Shown: positions 2,180 to 15,793 of the stretch, one piece after another
How positions within the stretch are numbered: the first letter of the stretch is position 1
Layout: every line of letters starts with the position of its first letter
Origin: Azolla caroliniana
Lineage: Eukaryota; Plantae; Polypodiophyta
DNA length: 15,793 nt
NCBI GenBank assembly: GCA_043228905.1
Contig: JBHGNT010000778.1
Coordinates: 1 to 15,793 of the forward strand
Direction of reading: 5' to 3'
The notes under the pieces: generated by a model
Told to the model about the DNA's origin: nothing
The model's database searches: none
Seen by the model: only the letters and a program-made list of their open reading frames with translations
Position numbers and translations under genes: made by a program

Positions 2180-3400
2180 TTACTCTTTTTCAACCTCGAT
2201 GGTCGAGGCTACATCGTTTAGAGCTTTGATTTCAAGATTTGGGGCCTCTCTTCTCTTAAAGATCTTGATTCTGTTTCTTGCAATTGGCAAAGCAAGTGGT
2301 GTACCATCCAGTTCTACTAAACGATATGTTGCATTATTTTCCACTTTCTTCAGCACATGGTCCAAACCATCGTTGTGAAAATTTTCGAGCCGTACTATGT
2401 TGGTTGTCTAGGCTACTGTCGTAGACCAGCACCCAATCTCCTTCAACGATTTTCCTCGAACAAAGTCAATGTCGTTTGTCGAAGTCTTTCTTGTTTTTCA
2501 GCCTTGCATTCTTTTGCCACGCTTTAGCCACTTCTATATCTTCCAACTTCCGCTCCAACTAGTGAATCTTCAATGCTAGAAGATCTTCTCTACTTATCTC
2601 ATCTTGCCATGGCAATGCAAACCATGAAACTGTAATACTCTGTTCCACTGGCATTATCGGCTTCTGACCGAATATAAGATCTTCCAGCATGTATCCCATC
2701 ACCGTGCGATGAGTAGTCCTGTCAGCCCATAGTGCAAATGGCAATAGACATGGCCATTCTCCTATTTTCCCATGGCAAGCTCTCACTAGAGCCTTCACAA
2801 TCAGTCCATGTCCACATTCCACTTTCCCATTCGCTTCCAGATTATACGCCGTGGTAAGAGATAATTTGATTCCCATCCCTAGACAAGAATTCTCTAGCTT
2901 CATTGGCATCCAACTCGCCTCTATCAACCACTATCTTGCTGACGCATCCACATCTGCAAATAACATCTCCAAGAAGGAATCTGCATACTGATGATGTCTT
3001 CTTAATTCTCAATGCTAGCCCTTCAACTTGATTGGTAAGATCCTCTCTCGCGAGCACAAGATACTTCATTTGCCATCGCCCCATTGGCATCATTACGATG
3101 TCCACCATCCACTTGTCATGCATAGCCAACGGGTAAGTCAGATGAAGTTCATCTCGATGGCGAACATTTGAAAACATCTAGCATTCCTTACATGTTTCCA
3201 CATAAGTTGCTACATCTTTGTAGATGCACGACCACCAATATTTCTCCTTAAGCTTCGCGAATGTAGCCCATATTCCTCGATGGCCTACAAAAACATTGTC
3301 ATGAAATTCAGACATTAGTTTTTGTCGGTCTTCCAGCTTGCAAACAACTCTCATTGGGGTCCCATTCTTCTGTTTTGCATGCCTCCAAAGAGCTCCATCC
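2180..3400 (-). pseudogene. pol: Gypsy integrase (HHCC zinc finger, DDE core, GPY/F-type tail), disrupted
   Basis: H..GHRGIWATFAKLKEKYWW..CKEC, KWMVDIV, VVDRGE, YNLEANGKVE and NATYRLVELDG are spread over ORFs 3178-4038, 2842-3177, 2559-2927 and 2180-2365, with stops and frameshifts. Confidence 0.92.
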
Positions 3401-5175
3401 TTAAGGAAATACTTGTACCCCTTCTTCCGAATTTGGTGGAAGTCTTCTGTAAACCATGATTCATCTTTTTGGAGAGAACTCAAGTATTTCCCGATCTCCA
3501 CGAATTCTCCTTCGTAGTCCTCTTCTATGAAAGTAGTCAGCACCCGAGGATAGGAACTTGTAAAGAAATCCAAGCCAACATCCTCTTCATTAGAATGTCG
3601 ATCTTCTTCTCCGTCGTATCTTTCTCGTGCTAGTATGTCTGCAATGACGTTACGCTTCCCAGCTACATGAAGGATCTCTAGGTTGAGTGATTTGATATAT
3701 GCAATCCAACGTAGTATGGCAATATCTAGTGTACTACAACTACATATCATACCCAAGATTGGTAGGCAATCTGTCTCGATTATGACTTCTCCTCCAATAA
3801 GGTAGTCACGATCAGACTTGATTGCCGATACAATTCCCCATAGCTTCCTCTTCACTTGGGCATACCTTCTTTGCCTATCACTTAACACTTTTGCGCAAAA
3901 CTGAATTGCATATCGGTTGCAATCTTCGTCTTCTTGGTTGACAACCCATCCAATTCCAGTCGGACTAGTATCCACGGTCACGAAAATGGGCTTGCCGTTT
4001 GAATAGTCTGCCTTCCATAATGCAGGTGCCTCCATCAATAATTTCTTCAGCCTTCAGACGGAGAAAGTATGCTCGCTCATCCATTCGAACCTCTACTTCT
4101 TCTTTAGTAGACCATACAATGGCTCAACAATGTGGGCGTAGTGTGGAATCCAAATATGATAAAACACACATGCTCCAAGGAACCTTTGAGCCTCCGTTTG
4201 GGTTACTCATTCTTCTTTCATGTCTTGGATCGCATTCACCTTGGATGGTGAAGCCTTCTGACTGTATGCTCCACACAAGTGACCAACCACCAAGATCTCT
4301 AGTTTCCCGAATGAGATTTTTTCTTCCGAAAATGTCAAATTCGCATCTTTGAGCATTTGAAGCACCTTCTCGCAATCTTTCATATGATCCATGACGAACT
4401 TTCTGCATCCATCCTTATCTTTCGATTCATCCTTCTCCTCATCCAAACATCCTTTTCTCGGATTGTCATCCAAGAATGGCATCGTGATGCTTGGGATGCA
4501 ATCCTTCAAGACCTTGTTCATGGCATTCACCATATGAGCCACCAAGTTCATTGCACCTTGAGGTAAGGTACACATCCGCACAAGCCCGATCGGAGTCCTC
4601 ATGGTTGTAATGTCACGACTGCTGATCGCCAACTGGAATTGATCATATCCAGAGTAGAGATCAGCAATGGAGTAGATGGACCGGCACGCAAACGCCTTGG
4701 CAAATTCATCCACACTCAGACCGATTCCATCATTCCAAATTCTTTCAAGCATTCTGCAGAACATTCGCTCCTCTTCAAGGGGGAGGAAATCCTCCCTTCC
4801 AACTTGTACCTTTCCTTTCATCTCTTCAATGAAGACGTGACCTATTGTCTTTGGATTCCTTAAGCTTGGATCTCTTGCAACTTCCTTCATCTTTTGCCAG
4901 CTATCTTCCGGTAGCGGAATTGCAATTGGCTTCATCTTCCTATCCACCATTTTATATTTTGTGGTGACTTTAGCTTCCTCCATCAAGATGCCTCGATGAT
5001 ATTCATCAATGATAGTATACATGTTGACAGAGTTAACAGAAATCACATGTTGATTGTGAGGATAGCTCAAGTCCATGACTTCCTCTATTTCGCCGATGGT
5101 GTTGTTAAATGAGGCTTCCTCCAGAATATGAGATAGGAATTCTTCTTCTTCGATTATGCTTTCTTCGTCTAGCAC
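3401..5175 (-). pseudogene. pol: Gypsy reverse transcriptase and RNase H, disrupted
   Basis: RT motifs ADLYSGYDQ, LPQGAMN, PFLDD (FLDD at 4465-4476), VVGH and RFLG. RNase H motifs VTVDTSPTGIG, RYAQVKRKLWGI, IETDC and GKRNVIADIL. In-frame stops lie between 4039 and 4209. Confidence 0.95.
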
Positions 5176-5399
5176 CTTCTTGGAGTCTTGTATCCAATGC
5201 TTGTCCTTCTGGTTGAGTAGTGTTAGTTTACATGTGCCCTAGGTGTGACGCATGTTGCTTCTCCTTGCAATCCACGGTCTTTGCTTCCTTGTGGAGATTT
5301 TTGATTGCTCAGACTATTTGTGGGCCATGCGTCAATAGTTCGCTTTAAAAATCTGAGGATTCACCTCCAAGGCTATCTCAGTTCCTTTCGTGATTAGCT

Positions 5400-6075
5400 C
5401 GCACCATCAGGAGTTGAACAGATCTTTCACTATCAAGACTCTTGACTCACGCAAAGGCTACTCCATTATCGAACACCTTGGTCTCCATCCGGGACAATGT
5501 TATATACGGTTGTCCTAGGATGACAGGATGCAAAGCCGAGTCTTGCACAAAGAAGTGTTGATCAATCTCCACATCCCTGATCGTGACCTTAACATTGGGG
5601 CAAGCTACGTACAAGTCCATGTGGCCTTCGTTGCCACTGAAATCCTCCATCCGTGGTTTGTATTAATCGGCCATCTTCCTTTCTTGTAAAACTCGGTCGA
5701 CATGAGGTTGATCTCCAAGCCATGGTCAATCAAGGCCACCACGGTCTCTTTCTTCTTCTCGATCTTCACCGGCATCTCCGTTGTCGCTCTTGGCCAATGA
5801 GGTTGAGAGTAATGGCTATCTCCCACCACTTCTTCTTCCTCCTCCTCTTTCGATCTTGTCATGGTTATGGCACTTGTTTTCATCTCCCCTTCATCATATT
5901 GTTGCCGCTTCCACTTAATAAGGTCCACGATAGTATCATGGAACTCCTTCTTCGCGATCCCAAGTAGTTCTCTCAAAGTAAGGTCGACATGACTATCTAA
6001 AGCCTTCTTCTCAAGGACCTTCTGCAAGTTAGTTGTTTGTTCTATGTCCAACCTTAACTTGTAAGTCTGTGCCAC
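5400..6075 (-). pseudogene. pol: Gypsy aspartic protease region, frameshifted
   Basis: VVALIDHGLEINLMS (D-H-G at 5719-5727) and downstream PVILGQPY (ILG motif) lie in adjacent frames. Confidence 0.88.
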
Positions 6076-7426
6076 TTATTCTTCTTCTTTCTTCGCTGAT
6101 TCATCAACTTCCATCTGAGCAGGTTGGCTCAATCCATTGGGCTTCATGCTTGTTTCTCCAACCTCTCTTCGTGGCGTCCATTGGGCTTGCCCTTCTTCTT
6201 ATTGGAACCTCGTACCTCGTATTGGAACGCTTTGATGTGCCATCTTCTTCTCCAGTTCTTTTCCTCTATTCTTCGACAAGAGCTTCATAGTTATCGCACA
6301 CAACCTCCGCAAAGCTAGTGTTATCATCGATTAGATCAGACCATCTCATAACTTGTCGCATGTTCCGATTAGCAAGTTTTAGATCCTCCAAATCGATTTT
6401 CCTTTTTTCTCGCACTTGAAGACCGTCAGCCAAAACCCAACTCCTAGCTTGATCATTTTAAGATTCTCTCTTCCAAGTCATATCCCGGCCGATGCAGCAT
6501 AGTGATGGCTTCCACATGCCTTGTGTCTTCCTCTTCCACAATCTTTTCATCCCGCCTCTTCCGAAGATCACTCGTAGTGGCTTCCGGGTCTCGCTCGAGT
6601 GGATCATGTTGCCCTTGGGCCCGCGTCGACCTAAGTTGGCTAGTGATACAGCTTCAAACTTCTTGGAGAGCTCTTCGATTATAGATTCCTCCATCGCTTT
6701 CTTGTCAAAATTGTTGATCAGCTTGCTCGGCTCGATCATTGTAGGCATTGTCCTCCACGATTGTGGATTCTCCACATCAGTCTCCTCTAACCATTGTCGA
6801 TGCTTATCAAGACGGCTACAAGCCTTCTTCACCGCCGCCCAATCCGCTACCAAGCCATTTGGTTGCGTTTCAACCTCCAAAAGGCTGCCCAATTCTCGCC
6901 GTTCTTTCATATCCACCACCTTCAAGAACAGCAAGACTTTATCTCTTTCGAGAACTCGTTGATCCGCACTCAGAAGTCAGTTGTACTTTTCGTCAAATTC
7001 CGCATATACTCCTGCCGCACACATATTCTTCCCTTTCTTCTCGATCCAAATCATTAGTGTATGTCGAGTCATCCTTGATGCATCTTCAAGCATGTATTCA
7101 GCAAGAACCACATTTTCGAACTCCGCCCAAGTTGTGTGCTCATTTTAGATCTCCATTATGCGCTCACAGATCCCTGGTTCCACCACACGTTTAAAGCTAG
7201 AAATTTGTTTTAGATCATTGACATCCCTCTGCTACATCTCGTTTAGATAGGTAGCAAGGAAATCTGTGATATTCTTGCCACCAAACCATCCAACTATCTC
7301 CACCGTTCAATCAACATCTTTGTCGATTAAAGCCTCCCGATCTCTCACCTTCAGCATGTATTCCACGACGAACACCATGCCTTTCGTTAATTCCTCTCCT
7401 TGAGTTCTGCTTGTCGAAGCCATCAT
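6076..7426 (-). pseudogene. gag: Gypsy gag, disrupted
   Basis: The ATG at 7426, just after the PBS, is in frame with ORF 6458-6934 and reads MMASTSR...GWFGGKNITDFLATY...TTWAEFE... with several in-frame stops. Position is between the PBS and the protease. Confidence 0.8.
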
Positions 7427-7454
7427 CGCACTTGATATCCTCCTACCGCCTTGT

Positions 7455-7472
7455 TTCACGTTGGGTTCACCA
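7455..7472 (-). other. Primer-binding site complementary to the tRNA-Trp 3' end
   Basis: The plus strand reads TTCACGTTGGGTTCACCA versus the plant cytosolic tRNA-Trp end TTCACGTCGGGTTCACCA (17/18, tRNA sequence recalled). A 4-nt spacer separates it from the LTR end at 7477. Confidence 0.85.
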
Positions 7473-7476
7473 AAGA

Positions 7477-7744
7477 TGTTGCGAAAATACGACGAGTGTC
7501 ATGAACTTGAGGTAGGACCCTGGGTCCTCCGACCAAAGGATATGAGATTCATGCGTTTATACTTTTAACAATTAACGAAAATGAGAAATATTGTAATTTT
7601 CTTTTCCTTTGCTAATGAAAAATTACAATATTTTCTCATTTCCATTAATTGTTAAAAGTATAAACGCATGAATCTCATATCCTTTGGTCGGAAGCCCTGG
7701 TGTCCTACCTCAAGTTCACGTATCCTCGTCGTATTTTCACCACA
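7477..7744. repeat. 268-bp imperfect palindrome made of two oppositely oriented LTR U5 ends (remnant 5' LTR)
   Basis: 7477-7600 is the reverse complement of ~7619-7744 (roughly 88% by eye, with a perfect core of ~48 bp). It begins TG and ends CA, and both arms are homologous to 567-~690. Confidence 0.93.
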
Positions 7745-7859
7745 ATGCTCTAACTCACTACGTTCCACACGCTATGCAATTTCCTACCCTGTACCACGAT
7801 CACCTTGATACGTACCCCGAAGGACTGAGGGTAGGCCATGTTCCTAACCGGCAACACTT

Positions 7860-8507
7860 GGTTGCTTAACATGAGAACAAGTGACTGAAGAGTATTCGAT
7901 TACATCTTCATACAAGGAGTTATCGGAATATTTTATTGCTTTTAAGGATTGGGTTAGTATTACATATTTGAAATTTTCCATTCTAGTTTATTACATATGT
8001 GAACAATGTATGAGTTACTTCTTTTGTTGTTTCACATAGAAACCATGTCATAGCAAGAAGCCTGGATAAGTCAAAGACAAACATGATTTTCCAGCTTCCT
8101 TTCTTGCCCATCTTGAAAGAGCACAGAAACAAAACAATCGGTGCTTAATGAAGGCATTCGATGTGGACGATTACGGAACTTTCAAGAAGTTTAGCCACAA
8201 AAATGATGTCACCCAAGAATTGTATTATAATGTGTACTATGGTGATGTGCCAAAGATGATCCAGAAGTTGCCAAAGAAGCAGTACACGTTACTCATTGTG
8301 GATATTCCATACGATTTATATATGGTCGGATCTTCTTATGATGATTAACCATTTAGGTTCAAACAATTGGAGAAAATGGTGAAGGATTTCGCAAAAGTTG
8401 ACCAAAACGAGCTTGTGGAGAATAGTGGTCTTTCATAGCATGGACCAAAGATATTCTATGGCTCAAGCGTTGAGATCTCGTTGTCATGGTGTAGAGAACC
8501 TTGTTTG
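7860..8507 (+). pseudogene. Spliced pseudogene fragment resembling a beta-class N6-adenine/N4-cytosine DNA methyltransferase
   Basis: Putative exon ending 7952 (..KELSEYFIAFKDW), intron 7953-8039 (GTTAGT..CATAG), then exon 8040-8507. That exon reads ..NVYYGDVPKMIQKLPKKQYTLLIVDIPY..YDD*PFRFKQLEKMVKDFAK/LTKTSLWRIVVFHS..VENLVW followed by GTAAGC. It has two stops and one inferred frameshift. Confidence 0.65.
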
Positions 8508-11500
8508 GTAAGCCTTACTTTTGGGTGTGACCATAATGAGTCTCCAAGTGTATCCACTATATGATACGTGTGTATGGATGTCCTCATTCATGTGTGTGTA
8601 TTGGGAAAACTCTAGATGATATTTCACATGGACTTTATATCCATAGTGTCCATATGTTTGATTTTCTTCTTTCTTACTAACATTAGAGTAAGGTATTATA
8701 TCGGGCCGCATTCACTAAGTATTAGAGTGCATAATGCATAATCACTAACTATAGCTATCAAATGTTGTATACACCATGTTCGTAACCTGTAATTTAATTA
8801 CATTTTATGTCTAGAGGTCATGATTTTCTCAATATTTCAACCAACTTTGCATATTACATAATATAGCATTTCAATTGAATAAGCAATTGTCATATTCTTA
8901 ATTTTAAATAAATTTTGTATTCAGAGATCATCAACTTTATAAATATTCAAAGAATACATGTTTTTTACTTTAAAACTTGTTAACTATTAATAATTTAGCA
9001 AATTCTATATGGGTTGACGAACATGTGATACTAATGTAACAAGTTTCTATATATTGCATAAATTTGCAAAATTATAAAAAGAATCTAAAAATGGAATGCA
9101 CTATCCTTCCACTTCTGAACGCGAACGTGTTTATTATAGGATCATGTTATGACATTGAGAGCATGTCAAAACCTTTATGAACTCTTTCAATGGGTCTCTC
9201 TATTTGAGGGAGGTATGACTCCACAAAGTCATCTAACTCTTTTAAACAAAACCATAACTCCTAGAGAAATCCCATCAAGGCTCTTGTCAAGATTACAATC
9301 AATTCTTAGAGTCACGCGTGATCGTGTGGAAGTTGATGATGTATTTGTAAACCCACCAGTTGTAGGTTTCAGCCCATGCTAGAAGTCAAGCTGGTTACGA
9401 CCTTTGGTACACCTCTAGTATGTCCTTACAAAATAAAGCAAGATAATCAAGAAACTATGGACTAAAATATGGCTAATGTTTCTTGACATACAAACCTTTC
9501 AAGACCCTCCATCTTGTCAAGTCAGTCTAGTTGGATCTTTCAATCAAACCTTATTGCATTATTTGCAACATGATAACAATGTAGGAAGTGCCCTTGACGG
9601 TGCCTATACGTGTTCTTGGTTTTGGTGATGGTTCTGGTGCTGGTGGTTGTACTTGAGTTGTCCTCCTAGTGTGTGTTTGCAATGGCATCAGAGAAGCACT
9701 TACGGAGGTCATCATACTCAAGCGTTTGTAAGAGAGCCAAGTGTGATGTTATATCCTCATCTGTATACCCCGATACCATCGTGCAACTATATGGAGAATA
9801 TAAGTGCTGGGATGGTTGATGGTAATTTCTCCAACATAAGTTCCATAATACCTAAAACACGTACATAAACAATTTTAGTATGTATGTGTGTGCATGAATG
9901 ATTGATTGTAGGAATGAATGTGTGCATCAATTTATGTATGCTATATGTGTGTGACTGAATGTGTATGTATGAATGAGAATCTTGTGTATAAATGTTAGTT
10001 TGAATATATTTATGCTAGTTTATAATTGAATTGTTAAACGTAAGCTATCTATGTGTACGAGTGTATAAATGTACGTGCATGAATGTGTTAATGAATAAAT
10101 TATTATATGGATGTTTGTATATGATTGTGGTAATGCGTACATATATATGAAATCATAAATAGCCTGAATAATGTGCATGTGTCCATTACCATACACACTT
10201 ACATTACAATGTAACAATGAAGTCCCAAGTACCTTTGAGATATTGGATATATTTTTCTCATGAATTAGAATGCTTGATAATAATATAAAAGGAAAGAAGG
10301 TGGTCAATACAATGGTCCATGCATTGGGACATGAAGATTATAACAAGGGTGTAAGTGTGGTGTAGAACAACTTCGCATCATTTGATCGTGAAGTGCCCAA
10401 TGATAAGGCTAAAGATAAGAACATGTGTGAAAACGAGATCCCTTGGAATAGTTTGGACAATGCCGTGACATAAATCTCCAAGGCTTCAAGCCTAGCCTAC
10501 ACTACATTGGAAAATATGAGAGGACCATTGGCATTGTGCAACAATATGCACCTTAGAAGCTTTGAGTTGGAGCACTACTATACCCGATAATGGAAATAAG
10601 AAGGTTGAAGGTTGTCTAGATGATGGCATGAATGTCCTCTCCAAAACTTCATCCCCAAGCTTCACTATACTTTGTAACTTTATGAAGCAATGAAGTTATA
10701 TGGGAACAAAGAATATGTAAAGGCCAAATTTGAGAAGTCATTTGCCATATAGAAACATTTAATACATGCATAAAATCATAAACATACATACAATTGTACT
10801 TTGTACATATATACACATACAATCATTAATTTATACAAATGCATACATTCATTCATTTACACATGCATATAACAATCACACACGCACATTTTTTACAATC
10901 ATTTGCATACAATCATAGAAATATAAATGCATTAATTTATATACATATAAACATTCGCATAAGCTCTTCATCATTGCGACTTGCCATTTTATTTCCATTT
11001 GACATTCCTCACCATCTAGTTCTATATGTAGCTCAAATTTTAATGGTAACTACTAACGGAGGAGTAATAGGAACACTTCAAGAAAAGGAAATGAAGAACT
11101 ATAAATAAAAGGGGTTGTACTCCCCTAAACTATATTACGGATAATGTTGCTTTCCATTACTTTATGAATGATAGATTAAGTAGAGTAGGCCTTTGACATT
11201 TATCTCATTATATTGCAAATTACATTTTGCTTGATTTATACTTCATTTTCCATATATATTAAGTAGAGTAATGCAAATATGGTCAAAACGATAGATGATG
11301 AAAAAAAAAACCATAAAAAATGTGGAAAAAAAACCTAATCCAAATTATGTTATTTAGATTTCGTAGATTAGACAAATAAAATTGCATATTGTATGTTATG
11401 TTGTTATTGAAGTTATGGAAAAAGGATGGATCATGGGAGACGATACAATACCCCCCCAAAAAGAACAAAAAAATACGAAGAATATGCTGGGTAGGAATCT

Positions 11501-12021: not shown

Positions 12022-12348
12022 ATGTATGCTCCGATGGGCCTCATCACGGCTCTCCTAGTGCTTGCCATCTTCTTCTCCCCTGAATTTCCGACTGCGCACG
12101 CGACCAATTCCTCCAACTTGAAGATCCTTGTTCCTCTCAAACTTGGATTCGAGGAGTTTGTGAGTTGGCAATCGTCTGAGATACCGGTCACGCCCAACTC
12201 CGTCGTCAATTTCTCCGGCTTCGCCATCAATGTGTTTCAAGAATGCGTTGAGAAGCTTAATTATCGTATTAATTACACATTAATTGGCTATGGAGATGGC
12301 CTTGTAGACCCAACCTATAATGACCTTGTGCAAAAGCTTGTCTCTAAG
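12022..12348 (+). CDS. GLR: Glutamate receptor-like channel, exon 1 (signal peptide plus first part of S1 ligand-binding segment)
   Basis: MYAPMGLITALLVLAIFF..AHA signal-like peptide, then LKILVPLKLGFEEFV..FSGFAINVF..L.Y..Y..YGDG..PTYNDLVQKL, matching the plant GLR S1 pattern (LRIGVP..F.EFV..GFCIDVF..P.Y..LV). Phase-0 donor AAG|GT at 12349. Confidence 0.9.
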
Positions 12349-13389
12349 GTATTACATTAGCTATACGTAATTTTTTTTTGTTTTTGTTGTAGTAATGACA
12401 CTTAATTTTCATAAAAATCAATCGCTTAAGGTTAATCATTTATGATAAATGGACCTCGATAATGTGTTTATATCTATGTTAGCAAGAATTTGTACGTGCA
12501 CATTAATGATAGAAAAGACATAAGGGATTGTGGCAATCCTCAAGTAGGATGTCATGGCTAGACAGGGAGAAACTAATATCTAAGTCCATAAAATACCTCG
12601 AGACTATATGTAACAAATTACTAAGATTGTCCTAATATCATACCCCTTACCATGGAATCTCGTTCAAAGATTGACATAGGCACTAACAAATTGTTGATAA
12701 TTCCATCTATAATTGAGGGTTTGATCCAGTGGACAAGAGTTTGAACTCCAATACATATGAGTGTTTTAAAAGTAATTTTTAGCATCGCTAAAATTATTTT
12801 GACATTCCATGATATACTATTCAAGCATCGGTTGGCCAAGGTAATGTTTTCTAGTTATTCTTGTAAGATCTATTTGATTAATTGTGCAAGATCTATATTT
12901 CTTAGCGCCAAGTAAGTCAAATATGAGAGGCTTATTCGGTGAATAATTGGTTTTGTTGTATTGTATGGAAAAGCTACTCTCAAGAGAGTACGATGTGCTC
13001 ACTTCGAAGAGATAAAGTAACTTTGTTAGTAATCCTTGTGTAGAATGGTCCAAGGAATAGTTTGAGCAAATTTAATACCAAAGATTGAAATTTTTACTCA
13101 AAGAAATACATGTGCAATCAAGTACAAGTGTATGGAGTAAGAGCCAAAAATGTATGCAGTAGAATCGCTTCGTATGGAGAGGGAGTTGTCCGATTTTGAC
13201 ATACGGAAGCCGATTTGATGAAGATATTGCGTTATCTTTGAATGCCAAGCACACGGTGCTTTGAATTTCCACTGCTTGATAATGATATTTACATAGCATA
13301 CAACAAGTTGGATTAATAAGGTTTTAATTAATTCTGTGCTCCAGTAATACGTTCGTATTGGTTTTCACTATATGCATGCATGGTCATAG

Positions 13390-13673
13390 GACGTAGATGG
13401 AGTAGTTGCTGATTTGACGATCACTAGTGACCGGTTACAGTTAGTAGACTTTACCCAGCCATATATAGGATCAAGTCTTCAAATGATCGCGCCACTTCAA
13501 TCTAGGAGTAATATTTCATTCTGGACATTCATTTCCCCTTTCTCTTGGCAACTTTGGATAACCATTGGAGCATTATTTATTGTCACAATGTCTTTGATCT
13601 TCTTCGTGGAATGGTGTGGCCGAGCTGATGAACACGATGGAGGTTGGGGAAAGGCCTTCTCAAAATCGTTTTG
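13390..13673 (+). CDS. GLR: Glutamate receptor-like channel, exon 2 (rest of S1, pre-M1, M1, up to start of M2)
   Basis: Acceptor CATAG| at 13389, then DVDGVVADLTITSDRLQLVDFTQPY..FWTFISPFSWQLW..IFFVE..SFW, and phase-2 donor TG|GTAAG. Both intron positions match those I recall for plant GLRs. Remaining exons were not found in the window. Confidence 0.93.
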
Positions 13674-14624
13674 GTAAGAACTCATGATCACCTCATATCA
13701 TATTGTTTGTATCAAACTAGATTTTTCAACACCTCATATTAGTGTGTAATTTAAACACACACAACATATGAATGCGAATATTTAATTGTATATATTGATA
13801 ATAAATATGTTAAATTCGAGTCATAATATGGCATTGATGGCAATTGACAAGGTGCGGAACAACTTTCAATAGCAGGTACTATGACATTGACAAGGGATAC
13901 AAGACTCTCTTAGGTGGAGGGTTTGTCGAGGTAGTGTTTATAGCAAAAAGAAGACAACCCAAACTTGAAGATAGATGTCTAGGGTTTACGGTTTAGGAAC
14001 ATGGAATTGGACGAGGTCCGGGCTGGGAGTACATGTGTAATATCGCGCTTTATATCAAAATGAAGTTAACCCAAACCCAAAGATAGACGTCTAGGTTTCT
14101 CAAGTAACCCTCACCTAATAGGGTTTAGGGTTTCATAGTAACTGCTACCCAATTGCTCTAGATTGTTTTCCAGGAGCTATTTAGACAACAATCTTACGAT
14201 TGATTGCTAGCCATAGTTGGTTGGGAGATTAGTTACAAGCATAAACTGAAAGACATGAAGGGGATAGATATCATGAGGAATGTAGGAAGACAATGTGTTG
14301 TTGAAGAAGAGAAAAATCTAGAGACGTGAACCATGGGTAGAGTTCATCATAACAATAAATATATTAGGAAAATAAATATATCAAGTAGCTAAAATTACAA
14401 GTTAGTTACCTTCGACGGAGAGTTACTTGGGTGTTGAAGGACTATAGACTATGCCCTCACTAGTGTGCATTATATAATTGAGTACCTAACTAACATACTA
14501 CGCCTTGCCTCATCTCATCTTTGAAGATCCTTGTCCCATTAGGAGCATCTACCCTTCAACAAAGCTTTTGCTTGAGTAAATGACAATAGAATAGTATGCT
14601 TGCCCAAATCTTCAACTACAAACG

Positions 14625-15164: not shown

Positions 15165-15793
15165 TATGGGTGGAGTTAGTTAGCCCTGTCCTTTGTCGAC
15201 TTACTTTGAGTTTGTCCATCGATAGGTTCTTCGTGAGCATGTCGGATCCATTTTAGTCAGTATGGATCTTCACAAGAGTAAACTCTCCATCTTCCACTCT
15301 CTCCTGTAACCAGTGATACCTTCTCTATATGTGCTTGGTTCAGGAGTGGTACATAGCGTTCTTGGCTAGATGTATGGGGTTGTGGCTATCACAGTGAAGC
15401 AAGGACTCCCTTTGCTTCATTCCTAACTCACTGAGAAAATTTCTCATCCAGATCAGCTCTTTTCCGGCCTCTACCGCTGCCATATACTCTGCCTCTATGG
15501 TCAACAAGGCCACATATTTTTTGAAGTTGTGACTGCCATGACATTACTCCCCATGCATAAGTCATCATGTACCCTGAAGTGGATGAACTTGAGTTTGTGT
15601 CCCCCAATGTTTCCAAGTCGGTAAACCCTTCAACCATACCTTAGGCATACCCCAAAGGTGCCTTTCAAGTACTTGAGTATTTATTTAATAGTTGCCCAAT
15701 GTTCTCTTCCTAGATTACTCCTATATCGGCTTATTGTCCCCATAGCAAATGCTATGTATGGTCTCGTACAATCCATAGCATACATTAAACTGC
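15165..15793 (-). pseudogene. pol: Copia RT C-terminus and RNase H, disrupted (Tnt1-like motifs)
   Basis: SLMYAMDCTRPYIAFA, HWATIK*ILKYLKGT, GFTD..STSGY..SWQS, VALSTIEAEYMA, LHCDS, TKHI and SDMLTK, with stops and frameshifts. Confidence 0.93.

Follow-up and report, generated by a model that had tools for sequence, protein, structure and literature searches.

A dead Sola1-like transposon fragment in Azolla caroliniana and its family with a predicted ParB-like methyltransferase cargo gene

The window analysed here is a stretch of 15,793 nucleotides from Azolla caroliniana, the whole of contig JBHGNT010000778.1. Positions 7857-9131 are what remains of a dead Sola1-like cut-and-paste DNA transposon that has also suffered an internal deletion, and the feature under study is almost certainly the relic of a transposon-borne ParB-like methylase. 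The original prediction had confined a decayed methyltransferase gene to 7860..8507, an extent that holds for the exon region but not as a limit, since the relic runs on as far as position 9131, where its right terminal repeat ends. The features of the locus are as follows.

about 2180..7856, minus strand: decayed remains of a Ty3/gypsy-type retroelement that truncates the relic (RVT_1, RT_RNaseH, Integrase_H2C2 and DUF4100 matches; junction at 7856, outer limits approximate)
7857..7952, plus strand: surviving 3' part of exon 3 of the ParB-like/methyltransferase gene, which is predicted to have six exons (blastn matches to intact and older copies start at 7856; donor GT at 7953)
7953..8039, plus strand: GT-AG intron, in the same position as in intact copies, from comparison with these
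8040..8507, plus strand: exon 4, linker and N-terminal half of a beta-class methyltransferase (DIPY, its motif IV, occupies 8301-8312; the frame is broken by stops at 8067 and 8346 and by an extra base near 8393)
8508..8516, plus strand: splice donor and deletion junction, a gap between flanking matches in loci L061, L063 and L064
8513..9102, no strand assigned: 3' non-coding transposon end, 76-92% identical in nucleotides to the older-subfamily copies L061, L063 and L064
9103..9131, minus strand: right terminal inverted repeat of the older-subfamily type (exact match G000:C778:9103-9131; 76% identical to the right end of the young element)

The reading of the exon itself was borne out by comparison with intact copies. 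In the window translation DIPY shares its frame with VYYGDVPKMIQKLPKKQYTLLIV and has a TAA stop on its 3' side at 8346-8348, while LTKTSLWRIVVF..VENLVW sits one frame over, a shift that corresponds to a single extra A near 8393. The bounding GT-AG signals proposed from the letters (donor GT 7953, acceptor AG 8038-8039, donor GT 8508) are those used by the intact copies. A second stop, at 8067-8069, is private to the copy on the window contig and missing in the other 9 near-identical copies compared. Overall the relic shares 72-73% identity with the young subfamily and 85-88% with an older one; exon 4 has 65% amino acid identity with young copies and 85-88% nucleotide identity with older-subfamily copies. 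Just after the donor at 8508 a deletion of about 1.08-1.14 kb, with CTTA microhomology at its junction, has taken away exons 5 and 6 with the SAM-binding motif I; having lost these exons, and with two stops and one frameshift, the window copy retains an incomplete methyltransferase domain and is a pseudogene fragment. Its left edge at 7856 lies inside exon 3 and abuts LTR-like sequence of the Ty3-type element. The left end of the transposon and its left target duplication are absent from the window, and a search of about 21 kb upstream of the corresponding place on the chromosome-scale contig C2 did not recover the missing left part.

We then scored the window with a profile of 15 database homologues (alignment A1), which included no locus of the A. 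caroliniana genome. Window positions 7866-8408 reached 56.9 bits (i-E 4.8e-19) and positions 8392-8511 a further 15.7 bits, while the top score in 20 shuffled windows and 1 reversed window was -2.3 bits, which rules out a chance motif as the explanation of the DIPY region. A Pfam search with the window exon alone matched no family; PF01555, the family that the original prediction had proposed as a check, is reached through the next exon, which the window copy has lost. Exon 5 of an intact copy did match PF01555, with 31 bits against a cut-off of 26.7, and matched phage methyltransferase families as well. The earlier reading of a decayed, spliced beta-class amino-methyltransferase is supported.

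The whole window (G000:C778) is a 99.87% duplicate of G000:C2:21,193,113-21,208,903 and is likely a haplotig or an extra array unit of C2. About ten copies of the relic, 97.7-99.8% alike, are found on small contigs and in the 21.05-21.20 Mb region of C2, indicating that it multiplied passively after its death, spreading with a tandem segmental duplication near a glutamate-receptor-like gene. Exons of such a gene lie at 12045-12360 and 13390-13677 on the plus strand (Lig_chan-Glu_bd E 2.5e-5) and are probably part of the C2 tandem array that carried the relic along. Several other features were recorded in the window. Positions 804-1784 hold a near-exact 491-bp tandem duplication with internal 121-bp repeats, also present in C2. 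Upstream of the first frame of the Ty3/gypsy-type element, for which no second LTR was seen in the window, a hairpin of about 270 bp spans 7477-7744 (87-bp arms, 92% complementary), with an inverted relative at 543-729 (region 543-830) and another upstream on C2 (L055). Frames at 15340-15640 on the minus strand resemble by eye what we take to be a Ty1/copia RT-RNase H remnant. On C2, only a few kb away from the sequence that corresponds to the window, L054:2251-4913 and L055:4276-5302 represent a third, more diverged subfamily of the transposon with its own palindrome variant.

Searching the A. caroliniana genome with the relic returned 1087 candidates, and all of the 150 that were scored had E <= 5e-36; the intact paralogues whose existence had been anticipated do exist. 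Copies are dispersed over all large contigs, and dozens of matches on many contigs share an identical score. Ten copies picked for this identical score, and thus biased to young ones, all contain a common unit of about 9.1 kb between unrelated flanks. This young element is bounded by 29-bp terminal inverted repeats that begin AACACG (termini AACACG-CGTGTT) and is flanked by target duplications of 4 bp in 9 copies and 5 bp in the remaining one. Divergence among nine copies, the tenth being omitted for a nested insertion, amounts to 0.6-3.6%. The young terminus has 775 exact matches in the genome against 0 for a control, and an older-type terminus has 41, one of which is window 9103-9131. We drew the features of Sola1 elements from PMC3845634, PMC9033089 and PMC5751038, in the parts of these sources that describe them. 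An AWWT target preference is given as a hallmark of Sola1 (PMC3845634), and none of the nine 4-bp duplications is AWWT, although six of them end in A; we therefore file the element as Sola1-like and not as canonical Sola1. In two loci, L056 and L057, two element copies adjoin or are nested within 10 kb, a possible case of local hopping or nesting.

One strand of the element encodes a 927-codon frame with DUF7869 (Pfam E 1.8e-51), the transposase, so that intact copies carry both the terminal repeats and the transposase that the original prediction had suggested looking for. Its stretch KVKVNFLLVGHT resembles, by eye, the last 17 of the 124 positions of the Sola1 RNase H profile (kvIelkflepgHs) in the PMC5751038 supplement. 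The transposase also has a conserved C-terminal domain (L051:601-1290, minus strand), for which a BAH fold found no match, either with alignment A3 against PDB or in Pfam. The opposite strand carries the spliced methyltransferase gene, head-to-head with the transposase. Its four downstream introns are all GT-AG and keep one open frame, and a short first exon with matching phase is present in 8/10 copies, giving a predicted cargo gene of six exons and, by arithmetic, about 974 amino acids. All methyltransferase exons are open in 4/10 young copies, and both genes in 2/10, one of them the reference copy. In young copies that have inserted, C-to-T changes amount to 2.3% in CG and CHG contexts against 0.55% in CHH and 0.42% for changes at A/T, the signature of host 5mC, which means that any protection of the element would be incomplete and at best partial.

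Homologues were named for 30 of 150 listed representatives and their kin, and come from Ceratopteris, Adiantum, Ginkgo, Riccia and Chara and, more distantly, from Holothuria and Clastostelium. A further 80 related loci were collected from metagenomes; they probably represent related plants, come from few assemblies and are not independent of each other. DIPY is present in 45 of the 49 that cover it and DLFSGT in 38 of 40; a head-to-head transposase accompanies the gene in all 12 with more than 2 kb upstream, and intron positions are kept in the six loci inspected. Searches with exon 4 alone found no longer homologues, and against phages gave only matches with E >0.05, so that no prokaryotic relative of the DIPY type was found in this way. 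The top phage match to the family is a fusion of ParB_N and PF01555 beside terminase genes, at about 25% identity. In a midpoint-rooted tree of 42 rows (7 near-duplicates omitted, bootstrap not settled) eukaryotic-type rows split from prokaryote-like rows (97/94), with neither a donor nor an order of events indicated.

The intact copies keep DIPY and carry the exon with motif I. DIPY in exon 4 is followed by DLFSGT|GTT (motif I) across exons 5-6, so that motif IV lies N-terminal to the SAM-binding motif, as in the beta class. The PF01555 cut-off is passed by 11/11 methyltransferase-bearing homologues tested. Intact exon 4 alone gives weak methyltransferase matches (E about 0.1), and in ESM feature space it adjoins PF01555 clusters at 0.93. 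The family profile searched against PDB matched adenine enzymes with E-values of 2.9e-14 to 4e-10 and 4mC enzymes with 5e-5 to 1e-4. For the fold we used a predicted model (pLDDT 82) of the intronless homologue P0041, whose motif is DFPY and which stands in for the A. caroliniana protein. The model has a permuted Rossmann fold closest to CcrM (Z 24.6, rmsd 2.6, 225 residues aligned), followed by M.BceJIV, MboIIA and M1.HpyAVI. Between young and older subfamilies synonymous sites are saturated (pS 0.70-0.86), while pN is about 0.05-0.2 (0.07-0.19 in exons 4-5), and omega, where computable, is 0.03-0.05 over a span that includes the catalytic exons. The cargo gene is thus under strong purifying selection.

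The cargo methyltransferase is likely an active enzyme. The main alternative, which we consider unlikely, is that the domain is catalytically dead or weak and has been kept as a DNA- or SAM-binding module that would regulate the element through occupancy of the palindrome array described below. DIPY departs from the canonical (D/N/S)PP(Y/F/W) in that the first proline is replaced, this position being variable (I, A, F, V, L) across the 15 A1 homologues. Distant relatives keep motif I and the GG.H motif of the ParB-like region, with motif IV decayed to DMPQ, DMPK or DTPT, in P0253 (Holothuria KAJ8049666, a sea cucumber), P0117 and P0113 (Clastostelium, an amoebozoan); the cargo may therefore be mobile across eukaryotes and sometimes non-catalytic. 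The methyltransferase domains carried by DIRS1 elements are likewise described as likely all inactive (PMC4738411, in the part concerned with them). Because of DIPY and of this decay in distant relatives, selection may act on a non-catalytic role. Against a dead enzyme, the D of motif IV (found in all 15 A1 homologues), the second P, the Y and DLFSGTG are nearly invariant although exon 4 itself varies between 46 and 95% identity across the related metagenome loci, the full-length homologue P0078 has canonical DPPY, and the low omega extends over the catalytic exons.

If the enzyme is active, adenine is quite likely its target, in preference to cytosine. An enzyme whose product is N4-methylcytosine, placed for instance on the CG within the CGAT half-site where it would block host 5mC directly, is less probable still than a dead domain. 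It would fit the CG contained in the invariant array core, the closeness of the fold scores (Z 20-21 for 4mC enzymes against 22-25 for adenine enzymes) and the use of 4mC at CG by Marchantia, as described in bioRxiv 10.1101/2021.02.12.428880. The profile E-values given above favour adenine enzymes, and motif IV contains S in the 4mC enzymes known from eukaryotes and in most of those from bacteria, according to the relevant sections of PMC4738411, bioRxiv 10.1101/2021.02.12.428880 and PMC8885841, where the Azolla family has D. On the same ground kinship with Marchantia DN4MT1, an enzyme with (T)SPPY, was rejected, and the link to the 4mC enzymes of Marchantia and rotifers that the original prediction had raised finds no support.

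The extra N-terminal region foreseen for the protein is also present in the intact copies, and is predicted, with modest to moderate support from structural and embedding comparisons, to be ParB-like. Foldseek searches of BFVD matched ParB/Spo0J proteins of phages with E-values between 2e-4 and 1.5e-3 (prob about 1) and gave long alignments to a phage protein named ParB/Sulfiredoxin, and ESM features placed this region at 0.92 to a cluster in which ParB_N is found on 35% of members. The best ESM named family for this half is DUF3723, not ParB. No Pfam match to ParB_N was obtained, and an alignment of the ParB-like region alone matched neither PDB sequences nor, profile to profile with hhalign, a phage ParB domain (prob 1.9%). 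The PDB fold lists for P0041 are filled by the methyltransferase domain and are hence silent on this half. The family motif in the region is GG.H[ST]..A; chromosomal ParB has GxxRxxA.

The predicted first intron of the cargo gene holds a conserved array of palindromes with the 15-bp core CGATRC-N3-GYATCG. Young copies contain 2-9 palindromes with the exact core, about 51 bp apart, and the core is kept in older subfamilies and in related loci while the flanking bases vary. It was found in 12/13 distinct perfect palindromes, which had been selected by symmetry and not by the core. Genome-wide the core has 4272 matches against 12 for a control, with none in the window. Among related loci with 700 nt upstream, 19/20 have the array within 1 kb upstream of the large exon, and these loci hold 151 core sites in 25 kb of array zone against 14 in 176 kb elsewhere. 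Site spacings cluster near whole numbers of helical turns, from 3 to 7, with R 0.78 for a period of 10.2-10.3 bp; as the spacings are not independent, the accompanying shuffle value overstates this clustering. Another repeated palindrome, with core AGCTAATTAGCT, belongs to a different element and occurs as several copies in a row (L062:1714, L068:8963-9403).

The cargo protein probably binds this array. The array might instead be bound by the transposase or be structural, with the methylase acting elsewhere, genome-wide or at target sites, a reading that we find improbable. Transposase-bound internal repeats are common in cut-and-paste elements, and the array does lie between both genes; against this, the terminal repeats lack the core, and the array is 3.5-4.5 kb inside the element, in the predicted intron of the cargo gene. 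Inverted-repeat arrays of red-algal elements also adjoin a ParB-like gene, as described in bioRxiv 10.1101/2025.02.11.637652.

That the exon derives from a domesticated host gene or an endogenous virus is hardly credible. In its favour, the annotations of Ginkgo, ferns, Riccia and Chara treat the homologues as ordinary genes, and the nearest prokaryotic relatives are phage proteins. The terminal repeats and target duplications, the transposase linked to the gene and the spread of copies over all large contigs speak against both origins, as do the consecutive Riccia tags R1sor_010795 (transposase) and R1sor_010796 (ParB-methylase) and the broken state of the window copy, and for the window itself both are refuted by the terminal repeat at 9103-9131. 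Of the two carriers named by the original prediction, transposon or virus, only the transposon is thus retained, on its repeats and target duplications.

The explanation that we favour, with moderate confidence, is that the spliced ParB-like methyltransferase of the intact relatives binds the array in its own intron and would methylate adenines of the element. The cargo gene would be transcribed and spliced as modelled, and the ParB-like and helical half would dock as dimers on CGATRC-N3-GYATCG sites presented on one face of the helix. The DIPY..FSGTG domain would be catalytically active and make N6-methyladenine. The mark, or the bound protein, might then keep the divergent promoter region of transposase and methylase usable against host silencing; alternatively, its effect could be a feedback tuning of this region. 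An anti-silencing effect of the cargo is a tentative proposal. More doubtful, in its complete form, is the picture of a land-plant transposon, recently active in hundreds of copies, whose ParB-like clamp loads on the array, spreads and lays 6mA (or 4mC) over the divergent promoters, resisting host 5mC. The window copy, without motif I, ParB exon, array and transposase, is incapable of any of these steps.

A related logic is known from VANDAL elements of the Mutator superfamily, in which the accessory protein VANC binds its own element and alters its methylation. VANC differs from the Azolla cargo in that it removes host methylation and is not a methyltransferase. The design of a self-modifying cargo is already in print for Sola1-1_Ec32 of the brown alga Ectocarpus and, in parts, for red-algal Plavaka elements. 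According to its description in PMC12477816, Sola1-1_Ec32 is of the Sola type and has, opposite the transposase, a second gene with ParB-like and N4C/N6A methyltransferase domains; the likeness to the Azolla cargo is one of described architecture, not of sequence alignment. Its transposase has moss Sola1-1_PPa as best match, it is listed with a target bias other than AWWT, and like the Azolla element it has 4-bp duplications biased to end in A (PMC12477816). The two differ in cargo length (1104 amino acids against about 974 in Azolla), termini (AACCG-CGGTT against AACACG-CGTGTT), size (21.5 kb with 282-bp repeats against 9.1 kb with 29-bp repeats), copies (2 intact Sola-1 listed in Ectocarpus against 775 exact termini) and host, a plant in the case of Azolla; the account of Sola1-1_Ec32 in the sections consulted mentions no palindrome array (PMC12477816). 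The accessory genes PAG2 and PAG3 of red-algal Plavaka elements are described as transposon cargo with a PF01555 methylase and a ParB-like domain, with tandem inverted repeats beside the ParB gene and self-binding proposed (bioRxiv 10.1101/2025.02.11.637652). On these EnSpm/Plavaka elements the two functions sit in separate genes, one joining the methylase with SET and the other the ParB domain with a 2OG oxygenase, whereas in Azolla the ParB-like part and the methylase form one protein of a Sola1-like element. For the algal elements, self-binding and self-modification are proposed without any assay in the relevant parts of PMC12477816 and bioRxiv 10.1101/2025.02.11.637652.

Outside eukaryotic transposons, phage ParB-methyltransferase fusions (PMC4738411, in the part that treats them; Javan69_0014) likewise join ParB_N and PF01555 in one chain. 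Javan69_0014 differs in that it shares only about 25% identity, is 417 amino acids long, has DPPY and lies beside terminase, and the phage fusions, as described, have no introns and no helical middle region of the length seen in the Azolla protein (PMC4738411). The beta-class enzymes CcrM, M.BceJIV, M.MboIIA, M1.HpyAVI and M.RsrI share the order of motif IV before motif I and the fold, while the Azolla cargo has DIPY in place of DPPY and a long N-terminal fusion, and is transposon-borne and spliced. Marchantia DN4MT1 and bdelloid N4CMT are also eukaryotic beta-class enzymes of bacterial origin but, in the accounts consulted, have (T)SPPY, make 4mC, lack a ParB domain and are host genes serving the host (bioRxiv 10.1101/2021.02.12.428880, PMC8885841). 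Land plants are said to have few N6A methyltransferases in PMC4738411, whose sections consulted list no land-plant clade of the ParB-methylase type, and the portions of PMC12344493, PMC12695648 and PMC12633428 that we consulted contain nothing on a ParB-methylase transposon family. We found no report of a land-plant member of this kind in the literature searched, which is not proof of absence.

The Azolla family thus adds a new member, from a land plant, to a kind of element that algal work has described, and the copy in the window is only its fossil. The family makes the algal idea of self-binding and self-modification directly testable, as it offers open copies and a 15-bp candidate site that is conserved across diverged subfamilies and present thousands of times in one genome, so that a methylome would show a local signal. 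It bears on the dispute over real enzymatic 6mA or 4mC in land-plant DNA, and points to transposons as carriers that bring such enzymes into plants. If the more doubtful complete picture, with a clamp that loads, spreads and marks the promoters, is true, no self-targeting amino-methylation system encoded by a transposon would have been shown in land plants before this one. It would also provide plant DNA with localized 6mA of enzymatic origin, and its lineage would have stayed on Sola-like elements all the way from charophytes to Ginkgo.
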